64,000 nt of DNA from an uncultured Ruficoccus sp. (lineage in GTDB: Bacteria; Verrucomicrobiota; Verrucomicrobiia; Opitutales; Cerasicoccaceae). Location: contig OZ223496.1 of NCBI GenBank assembly GCA_965140785.1, positions 143,947 to 207,946 of the forward strand, in the 5' to 3' direction. Each line of letters starts with the position of its first letter. Position 1 is the stretch's first letter. The notes beneath the pieces were generated by a model that was not told the origin of the DNA, ran no database searches, and saw only the letters and a program-made list of their open reading frames with translations. Positions 9,770 to 61,617 of the stretch are shown in pieces. A program made the translations under genes and the position numbers.

Positions 9770-10071
9770 GCAGGGCATGCCCTGCACCCTCGGTGCTAGC
9801 GCACCGGGATGCCTTTGCCGGGAGCAAAGGCATGGGCAACGGCGGTTAACGCCAACCCGAACGAACCTCGGGCCATCTCTTTGGCACGATGCCGTATCTT
9901 GAGAGGCTCGTGCGCTGACTCGCTGAGGCTCGCAGGGTGGCGCGGGTACAATACCGTCAATCACCTTTCACAGGTAAAGCCACCCTCCCTTCGGGGCAGG
10001 AGCCTTTCTGGCTCCGATGGGGCGTAGCCCCATCCAGATGCGGAGCATCTAGGGTGCAGGGCATGCCCTGC
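9770..10071. repeat. About 300-bp non-coding element bounded by ~42-bp inverted repeats
   Basis: 9770-9811 is inverted relative to 10031-10071. The first 21 bp (gcagggcatgccctgcaccct) match exactly and contain a 16-bp palindrome. Confidence 0.8.
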
Positions 10072-48838: not shown

Positions 48839-48871
48839 AGTACCTCGGTGTGACACCTGCCATCGTGATAC

Positions 48872-49145
48872 TAGAGCACTTTCGTTTTAATCTGTCGCCC
48901 TCGGCTGAGCTGATTTTAAGTTCTGGCAAGGCTCTTTCAAGGGACTTGGGCTGGAAGCCCTGGCCCCTTGAAAGGAACGCCGCCAGGCTTAAAATCAGCC
49001 AGTCCATTCGGATGGGGTCTGTCTTGCGGCTCGCGGCGTTGGCTGGGGGACTTACGGGCTTCCAGCCCGCTACGCCCCCAGCCGCCTGGCGAGCCTTCAA
49101 GACATTTCCCCACCGAGTGCGACTGATTAAAACGAAAGTGCTCTA
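48872..49145. mobile_element. MITE-like element, 274 bp, with 33-bp terminal inverted repeats and two internal hairpins
   Basis: Terminal repeats at 48872-48904 and 49113-49145 match at 31/33 positions and end in TA (TAGAGC...GCTCTA). No credible ORF inside. Confidence 0.8.
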
Positions 49146-49194
49146 TTTTCAAACTGGAATGATGAACTTGGGTCTTCTCAGAAAGGATCGTTTT

Positions 49195-49270
49195 TTTAAT
49201 AGGGAGGTCGGGAAGTCGGAGAGAGTGGGTCGCTACTTTCTTTTCGATCTTCCCGACCTTCCTGTTAAAT
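49195..49270. repeat. Cargo-free hairpin of the repeat family that flanks the GxxExxY gene
   Basis: 49248-49270 (tcttcccgaccttcctgttaaat) is identical to 58005-58027 and pairs with the left arm that starts at 49195. Confidence 0.85.
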
Positions 49271-56343: not shown

Positions 56344-56465
56344 TCGCCCCCGATTCAGGGGATTTTTACCGTAATGAAAGCCCCCGCACGGGCTTCTATT
56401 TGTCCGCCGTGCCCGCAAACTCTGTTGACGGCAGCGCGGATTCTGTTTCGCTAAGCAACTTTTCC

Positions 56466-57548
56466 ATGAGCTATAAACTCTTCATTCCCGGTCCGATCCA
56501 GGTGTCGGAAAAAACCTATCGCGCCATGACGACGCCCGTCGTCGGCCACCGCAGCAAGGACTTCGTGGAGCTGTTCCAGTCCGTCCAGCCCCGGCTCCAG
56601 CAGCTTTTTTACACGCAGGACCCGGTCTTCATCAGCACCAGCAGCGCCTGGGGCGTGATGGAAGGCTCCCTGCGCAACGTGGTCAAAAAGAAGGTCCTCA
56701 ACTGCTGCTCGGGCGCCTTCTCGGACAAGTGGTACGACGTCTCCCTGCGCTGCGGCCTCCAGGCCAAGGAACTCAAGTATGAGTGGGGCACCCCGATCGA
56801 CCCCGAGGACATCCGCAAGGAGCTGGCCACCGGCGAATTCGACGCCATCACGATTATCCACAACGAGACCTCGACCGGTACCATGAACCCGATTGAGGAC
56901 ATCGCCGCGGTGCTCAAGGAGTTCCCCGACGTGATTTCCATCGTGGACACGGTCAGCTCGTTCTCGGCCATGAAGATCGATAAGGACGCGCTCGGGCTCG
57001 ACGTCATGCTGACCGGCTCGCAAAAGGCCCTCGCCCTGCCCCCCGGCCTGGCGCTGCTCTCCGTCTCGGAAAAGGCCCTCCAGCGCGCCGAGACCGTGGA
57101 TGACCGCGGCTACTACTTCGATTTCGTCGAGTTCAAGAAGAACTACGACAAGGGCATGACCCCGAGCACGCCGGTCATTCCGCTCATCTACGCGCTCAAG
57201 AGCAAGCTGGAGGACATCTTCGAGGAGGGACTGGAAGCCCGCTACGCCCGCCACCAGCGCCTGAACAACCTCGTGCGCGACTGGATTACCAAAAACGGCA
57301 TGGAGCTGCTCCCGCCGCCCGAATTCGGCTCGGTCACGCTCAACTGCATCAAGAACCTGCGCGAAATCGACCTGCCCAAGCTCAACGAAGCCCTCAAGAG
57401 CCAGTACCACTGCGTCATCGACGGCGGCTACGGCAAGCTCAAGGGCAAGGCCTTCCGTATCTCCAACATGGGCGACGAGACCGACGCAACCATGGCCGAG
57501 CTGCTCAGCGCCCTGGACACCCTCCTGCCCGAGTTCGCAGCCAAGTAA
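56466..57548 (+). CDS. Class V PLP aminotransferase (serine-pyruvate/alanine-glyoxylate type)
   Basis: FIPGP, HNETSTG, DTVSS and GSQKALALPPG. Confidence 0.92.
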   Translation: MSYKLFIPGPIQVSEKTYRAMTTPVVGHRSKDFVELFQSVQPRLQQLFYTQDPVFISTSSAWGVMEGSLRNVVKKKVLNCCSGAFSDKWYDVSLRCGLQAKELKYEWGTPIDPEDIRKELATGEFDAITIIHNETSTGTMNPIEDIAAVLKEFPDVISIVDTVSSFSAMKIDKDALGLDVMLTGSQKALALPPGLALLSVSEKALQRAETVDDRGYYFDFVEFKKNYDKGMTPSTPVIPLIYALKSKLEDIFEEGLEARYARHQRLNNLVRDWITKNGMELLPPPEFGSVTLNCIKNLREIDLPKLNEALKSQYHCVIDGGYGKLKGKAFRISNMGDETDATMAELLSALDTLLPEFAAK

Positions 57549-57554
57549 AGGGTT

Positions 57555-57590
57555 AATATTTAACAGGAAGGACGGAAAGAAGCGGAAAGG
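57555..57590 (+). repeat. Left inverted-repeat arm of the GxxExxY cassette
   Basis: aatatttaacaggaagg (57555-57571) is the exact reverse complement of 58014-58030; the imperfect match extends to the ATG. Confidence 0.9.
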
Positions 57591-57992
57591 ATGCACGACA
57601 AATACGAAAGAGCCGACGGACTGACAAAAGCTGTCATTGACTCGGCCTTTCGTGTGCACCGCCATTTCGGTCCCGGACTGCTTGAATCTATCTACCAGAA
57701 GGCCCTTTCGCGTGACTTGACGCTGGAAGGCCTCCAGATAGAGACCGAGCTGACTATTCCGATCGAATACCGCGGTGCGGTCTTCACCGAATATGTCCGC
57801 GCCGATATCTTTGTCGAAAAATCCCTGCTGGTGGAACTGAAGGTCTCAGAGGCGTTCCGCCCGGAGCATATCTCCCAGACCCTCAGCTACATGAAGCTGC
57901 TCGATGTTCCGATCGGGTTGATTTTCAACTTCTTTGAATCCGAGTTCCGGAAAGGAATTCGCAGGTTAACCTTGAAAGGTGCCGATAAATAG
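57591..57992 (+). CDS. GxxExxY protein (PD-(D/E)xK nuclease-like fold)
   Basis: GPGLLESIY motif, RADIFV...VELKV, and 133-aa length. Confidence 0.92.
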   Translation: MHDKYERADGLTKAVIDSAFRVHRHFGPGLLESIYQKALSRDLTLEGLQIETELTIPIEYRGAVFTEYVRADIFVEKSLLVELKVSEAFRPEHISQTLSYMKLLDVPIGLIFNFFESEFRKGIRRLTLKGADK

Positions 57993-58030
57993 CCCTTCTT
58001 CCGTTCTTCCCGACCTTCCTGTTAAATATT
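57993..58030 (-). repeat. Right inverted-repeat arm of the GxxExxY cassette
   Basis: cccttcttccgttcttcccgaccttcctgttaaatatt starts immediately after the stop codon. Confidence 0.9.
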
Positions 58031-58032
58031 CC

Positions 58033-60543
58033 ATGAAAACCCTTGTCATAGCGGAGAAACCCAGTGTCGCCGGCGACCTTGCCCGCGTCCTCGGACGCAT
58101 TCCTAAAAAAGGCGACCACTACGAGAATGACGAATACGTCATCGACTCGGCGGTCGGTCACCTCGTCGAGCTCATCATGCCTGAGGACATCAGCGCCGAC
58201 TACAAACGCTGGACCCTCAAGACGCTCCCCATCGTCCCCAAGACCTTCAAGCTCCGCCCCATTGACAAGACGAAGAAGAAGTTTCAGGAGCTCAAAAAGC
58301 ACATCGCCCGCGACGATGTCGGCATGATCATCAACGCCTGTGACGCCGGACGCGAGGGCGAGCTGATCTTCACCTACATCATGGAGCTGGCCAAGGGTAA
58401 CAAAAAGGAAATCCGCCGCCTGTGGATGTCCTCCATGACCCCGCAGGCCATCCGCGACGCTTTCGCCAACCTGCGCTCCGCCGACGAGATGCGTCCCCTC
58501 CAGGACGCCGCCCGCTCCCGCTCCGAAGCCGACTGGCTGATCGGGATCAACGGCACCCGCGGGGCCACCGTGCAGTTTGGCCGCCGCGGCGGCACCGCCG
58601 CCACTGTCGGGCGCGTCCAGACCCCCACCCTGACCCTCGTTTACGAGCGCGAGTGCGAGATCCGCAACTTTAAGTCCCGCCCTTACTGGCGCATCCTGGC
58701 CGACTTCGGCGTCCACGCCGGCGAGTACCCGGGCGTTTACCAGAAACCGGGCTTCAAGAAGGGCGATGACGAGCACGACCGCGCCGACCGCCTCTGGGAA
58801 AAGGAGCAGGCCGAGCAAATCCTGCGCGAGGTCCAGGCCGCCGGCACCGCCGCCGTGACCGAGGAAAAGAAGCGCAGCAAGCAGGCCTCCCCGCGCCTTT
58901 ACGACCTGACCACCCTCCAGCGCGAGGCCAACAACCGCTACGGCTTCCCGGCCGGGATGACCCTCAACATCGCCCAGGCCCTCTACGAGAAGCACAAGAT
59001 GATCACCTACCCGCGAACGGATTCGCGGGCCCTCCCCGAGGACTACGGCCACACCGTGCGCGACACCCTGGCCAGCCTGCCCGAACCCTATGCCGTGCAC
59101 GCCGAGAAAGTCCTCGGCAACGACTGGGTCCACACCGGCAACAAGCGTATCTTTAATAACAAGCAGGTCAGCGATCACTTCGCCATCATCCCGACCAACA
59201 CCTCCCCGAAGAAACTCCAGGAGCGCGAGCAGAAGATCTACGACATGATCACGCGGCGCTTCATGGCGGTGTTCTTCCCCTCGGCCGAGTACGATGTGAC
59301 CACCCGCATGAGCGCGCTCGGCGGCCACACCTTTAAGACCGAGGGCAAGGTGCTCGTCGTCCCCGGCTGGCTCGAAGTTTACGGCAAAGGCGGCAACGGC
59401 GAAGACAACCTCCCCCCGCTCTCCCCCGAGGACGGCTCTCCCGCGCAAGCCAAGCTCGCGCAGGCCCAGATGGAAGAAGACCAGACCCGCCCGCCCCCGC
59501 GCTACACCGAGGCCACCCTCCTGGCTGCCATGGAAGGCGCGGGCAAGTTCGTCGAGGACGAGGAGCTGCGCGAAGCCATGAAGGAACGCGGTCTGGGCAC
59601 CCCCGCTACCCGCGCCGCCACCATCGACCACCTGGTCAAAGAGCGCTACATCGAGCGCGAAGGCCGCGAGCTGGCCCCGACCCAGAAGGCCGAGGATCTG
59701 GTCAAATTCCTGCGCACCTTCAAGATCGACGCCCTCACCCGCCCCGAACTGACCGGCGAGTGGGAACACAAGCTGCGCCAGATGGAGGAGGGCGAACTCT
59801 CCCGCGAGCAGTTCATGCAAGGCATCACCTCGATGACCGAGGAGATGATCAAAAACCTCAACGCCCCGCCCCCAGCCAAGGAGACCCACCTGCGCTCCCC
59901 CCTCGACGACACCCCGCTGCTCGAAGACCACCGCGCGTGGTTCTCGCAGGAGTCGCTCGATGTGCGCGGTCGCGCCATCCCGAAAGTTTCCGTCAACAAG
60001 GTCATTGGCAACCGCAAGCTCGTCCCCGACGAGGTCGAACAGCTCCTGAAAAAGGGCGAGATCGGCCCGCTCGACGGCTTCAAATCGCGCCAGGGCAAGG
60101 CCTTCTCCGCCCTGCTCAAGCTGGCCGAAAAAGATAACGGCTCCCTCCGCGTCGAGCTCGACTTCGGCGACAGCGGCAACGACGATGAGGACATCGACCT
60201 GTCGCAGTTCCCCGTCGTAGGCACCTCGCCGGTGGATGGCTCCCCCGTCCACGAGACGCCCAACGCCTACATCTCCGAGGGTAAAGACGCCAAAGGCAAG
60301 GCCACCTTCCGCATGAGCCGCAACATGCTCGGCAAAGCCCTCCCGCCCGAGCAGATCAAGAAACTTCTGACCGAGAAAAAGACGGACCTGATCAAGGGCT
60401 TCCGCTCGAACCGCACCAAGCGCCTTTTCGACGCCTTCCTCATTCTCAAGGACGATGGCAAGATCGGCTTCGAGTTTCCCCCGCGCCCGCCGCGCAAAAA
60501 GGCGGCTAAAAAAGCGGCCAAAAGTGCCGAGCAGGAAGGCTGA
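58033..60543 (+). CDS. topB: DNA topoisomerase III (type IA)
   Basis: IAEKPSVA, NACDAGREGE, GRVQTPTL and ITYPRTDS, with C-terminal repeats and a basic tail. Confidence 0.92.
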   Translation: MKTLVIAEKPSVAGDLARVLGRIPKKGDHYENDEYVIDSAVGHLVELIMPEDISADYKRWTLKTLPIVPKTFKLRPIDKTKKKFQELKKHIARDDVGMIINACDAGREGELIFTYIMELAKGNKKEIRRLWMSSMTPQAIRDAFANLRSADEMRPLQDAARSRSEADWLIGINGTRGATVQFGRRGGTAATVGRVQTPTLTLVYERECEIRNFKSRPYWRILADFGVHAGEYPGVYQKPGFKKGDDEHDRADRLWEKEQAEQILREVQAAGTAAVTEEKKRSKQASPRLYDLTTLQREANNRYGFPAGMTLNIAQALYEKHKMITYPRTDSRALPEDYGHTVRDTLASLPEPYAVHAEKVLGNDWVHTGNKRIFNNKQVSDHFAIIPTNTSPKKLQEREQKIYDMITRRFMAVFFPSAEYDVTTRMSALGGHTFKTEGKVLVVPGWLEVYGKGGNGEDNLPPLSPEDGSPAQAKLAQAQMEEDQTRPPPRYTEATLLAAMEGAGKFVEDEELREAMKERGLGTPATRAATIDHLVKERYIEREGRELAPTQKAEDLVKFLRTFKIDALTRPELTGEWEHKLRQMEEGELSREQFMQGITSMTEEMIKNLNAPPPAKETHLRSPLDDTPLLEDHRAWFSQESLDVRGRAIPKVSVNKVIGNRKLVPDEVEQLLKKGEIGPLDGFKSRQGKAFSALLKLAEKDNGSLRVELDFGDSGNDDEDIDLSQFPVVGTSPVDGSPVHETPNAYISEGKDAKGKATFRMSRNMLGKALPPEQIKKLLTEKKTDLIKGFRSNRTKRLFDAFLILKDDGKIGFEFPPRPPRKKAAKKAAKSAEQEG

Positions 60544-61167: not shown

Positions 61168-61211
61168 GAGCAGGTCTCGAAGCGCACGAAGAAGACACGA
61201 AGATCACGAAG
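61168..61211 (+). repeat. Left inverted-repeat arm (CACGAAG units)
   Basis: 61184-61211 matches the reverse complement of 61574-61601 at 27/28 positions. Confidence 0.88.
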
Positions 61212-61220
61212 GTTTGAAGA

Positions 61221-61541
61221 TTAAGCCCGTAACACCATCAGATTATCGCTGCATCCGGACAACAGATTGACAACGGCTCCCACCACTTTGTGAAAAAGCA
61301 TGCAAGACTCAGTGCCCTGCATAAGGAGGTACTGTTGATAACCGTCACCCGGATCAACTAACTTCGTCGTCACTGTGTTGCCTGTCGCAGGATCTAGCCA
61401 ATTAGTGTCGTAACCTTCGCCAGACACGAATCCATCCCAGTCCCTCAGCTCGTGGGACAAATCAACTGGCACCGAAAAATAAGAATATATCCTGAGCTGA
61501 TTCGTCATCCTAGAGCCTTCCTTGAATGCATCAATGGGCAT
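61221..61541 (-). CDS. Hypothetical low-GC protein enclosed by inverted repeats
   Basis: 106-aa ORF filling nearly all the space between the arms; composition is atypical for the window. Confidence 0.6.
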   Translation of the reverse strand: MPIDAFKEGSRMTNQLRIYSYFSVPVDLSHELRDWDGFVSGEGYDTNWLDPATGNTVTTKLVDPGDGYQQYLLMQGTESCMLFHKVVGAVVNLLSGCSDNLMVLRA

Positions 61542-61573
61542 GATCTGACTTGAGATATAATGGGCAGGTTCAG

Positions 61574-61617
61574 CTTTGTGATCTTCGTGTCTTCTTCGTG
61601 CCCTTTGTGACCTTCTC
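61574..61617 (-). repeat. Right inverted-repeat arm (CTTCGTG units)
   Basis: ctttgtgatcttcgtgtcttcttcgtgccctttgtgaccttctc, ending 3 bp from the menB stop codon. Confidence 0.88.

Follow-up and report, generated by a model that had tools for sequence, protein, structure and literature searches.

A GxxExxY gene enclosed by inverted arrays of seven-nucleotide words: a putative minimal hairpin-armed cassette between an aminotransferase gene and topB

Two described systems offer the closest comparisons for the element reported here. The intervening sequence (IVS) of the Coxiella 23S rRNA, as set out in parts of its published account, has a 28-bp terminal stem with the S23p open reading frame (ORF) in the loop and tandem heptamers before the start codon, and a cut by RNase III in mid-stem removes the Shine-Dalgarno (SD) sequence (PMC4990558). 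In REPIN/RAYT systems, again following parts of the published accounts, the gene is single-copy per family, vertically inherited and flanked by inverted copies of a repeat, which is itself dispersed as many gene-less hairpins, and several gene/repeat families occur per genome (PMC3116915, PMC3337134, 10.1101/2021.07.10.451892). Here we describe an element of about 480 bp, found between a class-V aminotransferase gene and topB in a 64,000-nt stretch of DNA (the window) from an uncultured Ruficoccus sp., in which the gene for a 133-residue GxxExxY protein is enclosed by two inverted-repeat arms. The function of its family, PF13366, is listed as unknown in the portion of a 2012 survey of PD-(D/E)xK proteins that we draw on (PMC3424549). 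The source assembly, G000, comprises 4.36 Mb in 50 contigs and contains the window as C25:143947-207946; contigs and related genomes are denoted by C and G numbers.

The cassette at the topB locus

The arms box the GxxExxY gene exactly, one on each side, between the aminotransferase and topB genes, and our coordinates agree with the layout given in a preliminary description made from the letters of the window alone (Table 1). The perfect outer 17 bp and the units of about 9 nt that it reported were likewise observed: positions 57555-57571 are complementary to 58014-58030 throughout, and each arm consists of three units, each made of the core C-R-G-R-A-A-G plus 2-3 spacer bases. Aligned without gaps the inverted repeat extends over 27 nt at 93%, and with gaps over 33-36 nt. 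The gapped arm score is 49, compared with 15.1 ± 2.0 in 300 shuffles (maximum 25; z 16.9), and a score of at least 40 was reached by just 1 of 1500 random windows of the same geometry in the source genome. A chance match or an ordinary terminator is ruled out by these two sets of scores. The hexamer AATATT, which is present at both ends of the cassette, had been taken for a direct target duplication. It lies within the inverted repeat and also recurs at the ends of a gene-less copy at C47:128367-128393, and so cannot be read in that way.

The encoded protein matches PF13366 with 116.2 bits against a cut-off of 22 (E 1.3e-33) and the GxxExxY family TIGR04256 with 115.6 bits against a cut-off of 35 (E 1.5e-33). 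PF13366 is its sole family match among the Pfam profiles; identity with a known transposase was rejected, since no transposase family was matched. The GxxExxY motif reads G29-L-L-E32-S-I-Y35, with D72 and E82-L-K84 also present, and E32, Y35, D72, E82, K84 and N113 are invariant across 54 aligned sequences. Using an AlphaFold (AF2) model with a pLDDT of 94.5, we obtained Cas4 SSO0001 (4ic1) as the best Foldseek match (E 6.4e-4, TM 0.42), and VIA Z scores of 8.0 for 3ijm, 7.6 for 3s1s, 7.3 for 4ic1 and 6.2 for the Holliday junction resolvase Hjc (1gef). The model shares the nuclease core and the E...D...ExK signature with these solved PD-(D/E)xK nucleases, namely 4ic1, the restriction-endonuclease-like 3ijm, the BpuSI nuclease domain and Hjc. 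Z scores of 8 or less point to a common fold only, so a substrate cannot be inferred from them. A sequence search of the PDB returned nothing meaningful (best E 0.43), and none of the defence-model families of PADLOC-DB matched at E 0.01 or better. From the model, the protein appears to be a generic PD-(D/E)xK core without a close solved relative.

Recurrence of the gene and its arms

Five GxxExxY loci were identified in the source genome, one of which is interrupted by a frameshift or a TGA, and all five are flanked by inverted repeats, with scores of 41-58 (z 9-19). Their arm sequences differ and the build is shared: a short terminal motif (TTAAC, TTAGCC or CTCAC) is followed by 3-4 tandem units of 8-11 nt, the arms upstream of the gene are purine-rich on the sense strand, and each cassette is oriented with both neighbour genes. 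In the C10 copy the gene stands between two complete hairpins, and two congeners carry an unrelated 37-39-nt spacer at its site. The broken copy is that of C39; the congener G003 has two GxxExxY cassettes with related arm types placed 1.1 kb apart (C12:220071-220418 and 221518-221865), one of which occupies the site of this C39 copy.

The C3 copy is missing from all four congeners, each of which has a clean empty site. The insertion in G000 measures about 475 nt and is flanked by an 18-nt direct duplication, which spans the ribosome-binding site (RBS) and the overlapping TGA/ATG of the host genes and leaves both genes intact. Comparison of the five genomes indicates that this paralogue is a clean, fresh insertion. 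An empty site of this kind had been called for at the topB locus by the preliminary description; it is seen at C3 and not at topB, where the spacers cannot be aligned.

To place these loci in a wider sample we used the top 80 paralogue matches from the relatives, with matches containing internal stops, the G000 copies, the four orthologues and one match near a contig start left out. Of the 79 usable loci, 65 scored at least 30, 60 at least 34 and 52 at least 40; the same thresholds were reached by 10, 4 and 1 of 1500 random G000 windows. A scan across phyla, made with an 8-sequence alignment of one protein clade, one genome per species and the best 80 loci, gave scores of at least 34 at 62 of 79 usable loci, which fall into at least 14 phylum-level groups by contig titles. 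The scanned clade keeps a (T)CTCAC terminus and CRCRRAG units across phyla, and at some of the loci the gene has a full hairpin on either side. Flanks cross-paired between loci of this clade also reached 34 or more in 71 of 600 pairings because the arms share words across loci, and the random windows are the cleaner background. The prediction that inverted repeats would be found at other GxxExxY copies was therefore borne out at each scale (5/5 in G000, 60/79 in the relatives and 62/79 across phyla). These comparisons show, at the level of sequence, that the gene and its arms form one heritable unit recurring across phyla.

The type of arm also tracks the protein. On a FastTree phylogeny of 69 proteins the crude arm-type labels change 26 times, compared with no fewer than 34 times, and 40 on average, in 300 shuffles, and well-supported protein clades share their terminal arm motif. 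Orthologues inflate this signal, yet the clades include copies at different sites of one genome. Co-occurrence was scored in 41 related genomes. Triple arrays of CRCRRAG were detected in all but one of the 27 genomes with PF13366 (26 of 27), and among the 14 without it G033 alone has arrays, the 7 found there being equal to the 7 in the reversed control and hence spurious. Genes and arrays are both missing from G009 (4.9 Mb, 99% complete) and both present in its five congeners. Genomes with PF05635 only (23S_rRNA_IVP, the IVS-protein family) lack the arrays in 3 of 3 cases, and those with PF13366 only have them in 4 of 5.

Within the arms the paralogue units share a 7-nt core, C-R-C-R-R-A-(G/T), repeated with a period of 8-9 nt. 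We compared the two arms with each other in 57 of the relatives' 65 cassettes, the remaining 8 having no match to the core pattern, and observed mismatches in 66 of 1075 core columns and in 77 of 237 spacer columns. The resulting ratio of 5.3 compares with 1.24, and at most 2.23, in 200 runs of simulated uniform mismatch. The orthologous arms at the topB locus behave alike, their cores being kept between genera and their spacers differing. Mismatches that lie in the spacers while the cores are kept would suggest that the arms behave as inverted arrays of recognition words, and not as a stem kept for pairing alone.

This pattern, which points to sequence-specific recognition, argues against an account in which the cassette acts as an RNA-level intervening sequence, the arms pairing in the transcript, RNase III cutting the stem and the RBS of the cargo being removed or hidden, so that the arms would serve processing and not mobility. 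Such a role could coexist with the DNA-level reading that we favour below. The minimum-energy fold of 57540-58045 does pair the arms, at -195.6 kcal/mol against -145.0 ± 6.2 for shuffles (z -8.2), and the stem reaches into both host flanks, with 57548-57554 paired to 58038-58044 inside codons 2-4 of topB. Pairing of the arms in the mRNA, looping-out of the gene and masking of its RBS would thus be energetically possible according to the predicted fold. Among the mismatches, however, 43 are G·U in the sense strand, 66 are G·U in the antisense strand only and 94 are transversions, and the wobble pairs show no sign of selection for pairing in the sense strand. The build matches that of the Coxiella IVS as partly described (PMC4990558), and the two PF05635 genes of G000 both lie in cassettes built alike, whose arms are also made of units but belong to other types and score 37 and 27 (shuffles about 16 ± 2). 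Orientation also speaks for action in the transcript: of the relatives' 65 cassettes, those lying between co-directional genes are oriented with them in 28 cases and against them in 7, by a rough ORF criterion in GC-rich DNA, and the downstream gene is on the cassette strand in 49 of the 65. The dispersed, near-identical gene-less copies and the fresh insertion at C3 would be left unexplained, and we consider an RNA-level role unlikely to be what the arms are for.

The two PF05635 cassettes lie at C47:64241-64756 and C26:43709-44130, each between co-directional housekeeping genes. The arms of the C47 cassette are built from GTTTGA units, of which there are dozens of gene-less copies. Arrays of this type are confined to G000, G002 and G003, these being the three congeners in which the boxed C47 gene has a high-scoring orthologue; their reversed-pattern control is not independent, since the same tandem arrays match in another register.

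Table 1. Features of the window at and around the cassette, in window coordinates
Feature	Position	Strand	Evidence and boundaries
Upstream host gene, class-V aminotransferase	56400..57548	+	PF00266 (Aminotran_5), E 4.7e-21; synteny with topB kept across family and order; stop TAA at 57546-57548
6-nt spacer AGGGTT, host stop codon to left arm	57549..57554	+	Read from sequence
Left arm, 36 nt: terminal TTTAAC and three C-R-G-R-A-A-G cores with 2-3-nt spacers	57555..57590	+	
GxxExxY / PDDEXK_3 gene, 133 aa and stop	57591..57992	+	PF13366, TIGR04256; ATG at 57591, stop TAG at 57990-57992
Right arm, 38 nt, inverted copy of left arm	57993..58030	+	
Downstream host gene, DNA topoisomerase III (topB)	58033..60543	+	NF006032, 1075 bits; PF01131, E 1.3e-115; ATG at 58033, 2 nt after the right arm
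Gene-less hairpin, topB-locus arm family, decayed left arm	49197..49270	.	Match at G000:C25:193188-193216

Vertical descent, turnover of sites and gene-less hairpins

Synteny of the aminotransferase-topB pair extends throughout the family and over much of the order, and we read the junction between the two genes in 15 relatives of the source genome. An orthologous cassette with the same arm type is present in G003 of the same genus (protein 83% identical), in G014 (72%) and G012 (70%) of a second genus and in G007 (66%) of a third. The protein is exactly 133 residues long in all five orthologues. The dN/dS ratio is 0.08 for G000-G003 and 0.06 for G014-G012, with dS above 1 and synonymous sites saturated between genera, and these values indicate that the gene is under strong purifying selection. 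Orthologues in three genera, taken with these ratios, show that the topB-locus cassette is old, has been vertically inherited since before the split of the three genera and is under selection. The earlier notion of a one-gene mobile cassette is supported as to the kind of element, which is recurrent and insertable, and not supported as to this copy, which is not a recent insertion.

The remaining junctions show that the cassette was lost or replaced several times among the relatives. In G001 and G002, of the same genus, an unrelated 121-122-nt spacer contains an ordinary terminator-like hairpin, and in G004, G013, G015, G011 and G008 the junction holds a gene-less hairpin of the same build with another unit sequence. 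G009 has a different ORF at this position, and three more distant genomes have a 30-55-nt spacer without a hairpin. The collapsed junction TAA-AGGGTT-AATATT-CC-ATG, which had been proposed as the state without the cassette, was seen in none of the 15. Among public contigs, a relative from an algal metagenome joins 57549 to 58032 via 124 other letters, and a second, low-depth strain joins 57548 to 58032.

Turnover was also evident when 19 same-genus cassettes were mapped onto G000. An orthologous cassette is present for 5 of them (3 sites), a gene-less hairpin of the same arm family for 1 and a gene-less hairpin of a different arm family for 4 (3 sites), while 2 have no hairpin in G000 and 3 (two sites) have other DNA. 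A further 3 (1 site) fall on a contig break, and 1 could be placed by one flank only. At one of the sites with other DNA, accounting for 2 of the 3 loci, the right arm alone survives beside low-GC DNA with other ORFs. These varied outcomes indicate that the content of the spacers turns over quickly, with the arms as points of exchange. At C47:108311-109164, where a GxxExxY cassette with CACAGAG arms is present in G002 and G004, G000 retains the right arm alone, beside about 850 nt of low-GC DNA that contains two small ORFs, one with a CPFCG motif; here G000 has had the cargo and one arm replaced. The flanks of another GxxExxY cassette, shared by G001, G002 and G003 and belonging to the CACGAAG arm family, map to the end of C18 and the start of C40. 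It is possible that a sixth G000 cassette, probably of the CACGAAG family, lies in this assembly gap.

A genome-wide inverted-repeat scan of G000 revealed many more hairpins of the cassette build without a gene. The topB-locus arm recurs as a short-loop, gene-less hairpin at at least 13 other places in G000, and the right-arm sequence matches many dispersed places in G000 and its relatives. Counted as a pattern, the arm has 44 occurrences in G000. Of 15 family members, 10 have 4-95 occurrences, and the 25 genomes beyond the family have 0-1 each. The short hairpins often sit in the middle of a repeat about 190 nt long, and those of the topB-locus arm family sometimes abut or interrupt hairpins of other families. 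An origin as recent deletion derivatives of the cassette was ruled out for the gene-less hairpins, as no gene remnant was found in those of their loops that reach 45 nt. Conserved inverted-repeat scaffolds of about 190 nt with a topB-type hairpin in the centre were observed at C2:25541, C22:24377, C34:72121, C47:141761 and C10:17303, and other copies of this scaffold hold a hairpin of another family.

The abundance of hairpins without a gene invites the opposite assignment, in which the arms belong to the host, as REP-like repeats or terminators, and the gene is a homing nuclease that invaded pre-existing hairpins. Gene-less hairpins far outnumber the genes, their loops carry no trace of the gene, relatives may hold a hairpin without the gene at orthologous sites, and an arm family can persist in genomes that lack the cognate gene. 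Random invasion would not yield an arm terminus and words that one protein clade keeps across phyla, nor is it expected that arm type should follow the protein tree, with fewer changes than in any of the 300 shuffles. The core-word arrays, moreover, are absent from the 14 related PF13366-free genomes apart from the one spurious match. On balance we regard invasion of host hairpins as quite improbable.

A host function raises a related question, since vertical inheritance over three genera at such low dN/dS, and the refilling of the same intergenic gaps by hairpins of different families, could point to domestication, with the nuclease and hairpins serving termination or insulation, genome structure or defence, and mobility being incidental. 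At the topB site, cassette and hairpin alike have been lost from two relatives of the same genus, with the neighbours undisturbed, and whole related genomes do without the gene-array system. Nor did the protein match any PADLOC defence model. We consider domestication to be the least probable of the readings discussed here.

Several further elements were observed in the same scans. The window contains a second cassette at 61168-61617 (C25:205114-205563), with 44-nt arms of the CACGAAG unit family (score 63), which encloses 362 nt with a 106-aa minus-strand ORF that has no Pfam match. Gene-less hairpins of the CACGAAG family are found at C12:43961, C39:256342 and C40:815. At C14:33640-34115 perfect 32-nt arms of the CACAGAG family surround a 132-aa ORF, also with no Pfam match, which may represent another type of cargo of hairpin-armed cassettes. 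A different dispersed element, with inverted repeats of about 33-39 nt (TAGAGCACTTTCG...) around about 100-210 nt, is present in at least 5 copies, at window 48866-49151 (C25:192812-193097), C13:97389, C14:14566, C26:188344 and C39:251219. A further repeat family, at window 9770-10071 (C25:153716-154017) and C32:30714, has palindromic, GC-rich inverted repeats about 40 nt long (GCAGGGCATGCCCTGC...) around 219-447 nt.

A nuclease proposed to act on its own arms, and comparison with known systems

The topB-locus copy is one intact, long-resident, hairpin-armed GxxExxY cassette, oriented with the host operon. Our favoured reading, to which we give an even chance, is that it belongs to a class of DNA element whose nuclease acts on its own arms. 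The nuclease would recognise the core words of these arms, in the form of duplex ends or of an extruded hairpin, and by cutting there would drive or maintain the copying of arm pairs, whether or not these hold the gene. Gene and repeat would then be related much as RAYT and REPINs are, with an unrelated enzyme. The cassette itself is probably read through from the aminotransferase-topB transcript.

A number of observations weigh against this reading. The link between protein and arm is one of association, drawn from sequence comparison. Six relatives hold 4-33 topB-type arms without an orthologue of the gene, including G002 (33), G008 (21), G015 (16), G013 (10) and G004 (10), and the best related protein is 37-43% identical; a strict dependence on the cognate gene therefore fails for the arm family of the topB locus. 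The co-occurrence across genomes is partly built in, because each gene brings two arms, and a clear excess of arrays is seen in about half of the positive genomes. Small size (0.8-2.6 Mb) is common to most of the genomes in which gene and arrays are both missing, and genomes that are related do not count as independent samples. There is one gene copy per arm family per genome, which argues against efficient homing. A hidden Markov model of the gene, run on 91 loops of at least 45 nt, recovered the 4 intact cassettes only and found no remnant in the other 87, and a 147-nt loop at C39:106749 has no resemblance to the gene found at this site in G002. The replacement of arm families by one another at shared sites is not explained by simple insertion. 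One clean insertion with a duplication was found in total, at C3, and cut-and-paste transposition would not usually leave an 18-nt duplication plus 19 and 12 additional bases beyond the arms. At the topB locus and at the C10 copy the cassette-free congeners have unalignable spacers, in which no duplication can be read.

The tie between gene and arms is of interest beyond this locus, since the PF13366/TIGR04256 family is large and many genomes contain several members, and the tie offers a hypothesis for the whole PF13366 family, in which its defined DNA partner would be the inverted arrays of 7-nt words that accompany the gene across phyla. For annotation, it accounts for small genes placed exactly between housekeeping genes and for assembly breaks at such places. 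If the favoured reading is correct, it would account for a class of hairpin repeats with which intergenic spacers of operons are filled across many phyla, and would provide a second, enzyme-unrelated case of a long-lived partnership of the RAYT/REPIN type between repeat and gene. It would also suggest an origin for the ORF-bearing intervening sequences of 23S rRNA. A more ambitious joint proposal, which we put forward tentatively and hold to be somewhat more doubtful than the favoured reading, is that GxxExxY proteins are the mobilising enzymes of minimal hairpin or terminal-repeat transposons present across phyla. The nuclease would read arrays of 7-nt words in its own arms and disperse, in trans, arm pairs that hold no gene. 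With a length of about 0.5 kb, such transposons would be smaller than any other autonomous element of bacteria, and the ORF-bearing 23S IVSs would belong to the same class with PF05635 as cargo.

We found no description of the hairpin-armed arrangement in the literature on GxxExxY/PDDEXK_3/PF13366, IVSs, REPIN/RAYT and MITEs (miniature inverted-repeat transposable elements), taken mostly at the level of abstracts. Insertion sequences and their MITE derivatives share with the cassette the terminal inverted repeats, the tens of short gene-less copies, the nested insertions and, in one instance, an insertion with a duplication. The cassette is far smaller than any insertion sequence and has no known transposase family, the gene-less loops are unrelated to the gene, and the 18-nt duplication was seen once.

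The likeness to the ORF-bearing 23S IVSs of Coxiella and Leptospira, as partly described, lies in the structure. Both are about 430-480 nt long with a terminal stem of about 28-36 bp, a small ORF fills the loop, tandem heptamer units stand beside the start codon and a purine-rich SD sequence lies inside the stem. In contrast, the GxxExxY cassette is situated between protein genes and not in a helix of the 23S rRNA, and its cargo is GxxExxY and not S23p.

The likeness to REPIN/RAYT, in the parts of the accounts cited above, lies in the behaviour of gene and repeat, the single-copy, vertically inherited gene being flanked by inverted copies of a repeat that is dispersed as many gene-less hairpins, with several such families in one genome. 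Unlike RAYT, the GxxExxY cassette encodes a 133-aa PD-(D/E)xK nuclease and not a Y1 HUH transposase, its arms are arrays of 7-nt words and not REP palindromes, and its repeats persist in relatives without the cognate gene. G000 has a genuine RAYT/TIRYT-like system of its own at C43:224651-225655, where a 308-aa ORF matches PF01797 (Y1_Tnp, IS200-like) over its first 149 residues (E 1.1e-9) and is flanked by perfect 27-nt inverted repeats, which recur at about C43:224-227 kb, C12:34909 and C10:294876. RAYT/REPIN is thus the closest working analogy for the GxxExxY cassette and the ORF-bearing 23S IVS the closest structural one, and the cassette is a member of neither, because its enzyme and its location differ from those that define these systems.

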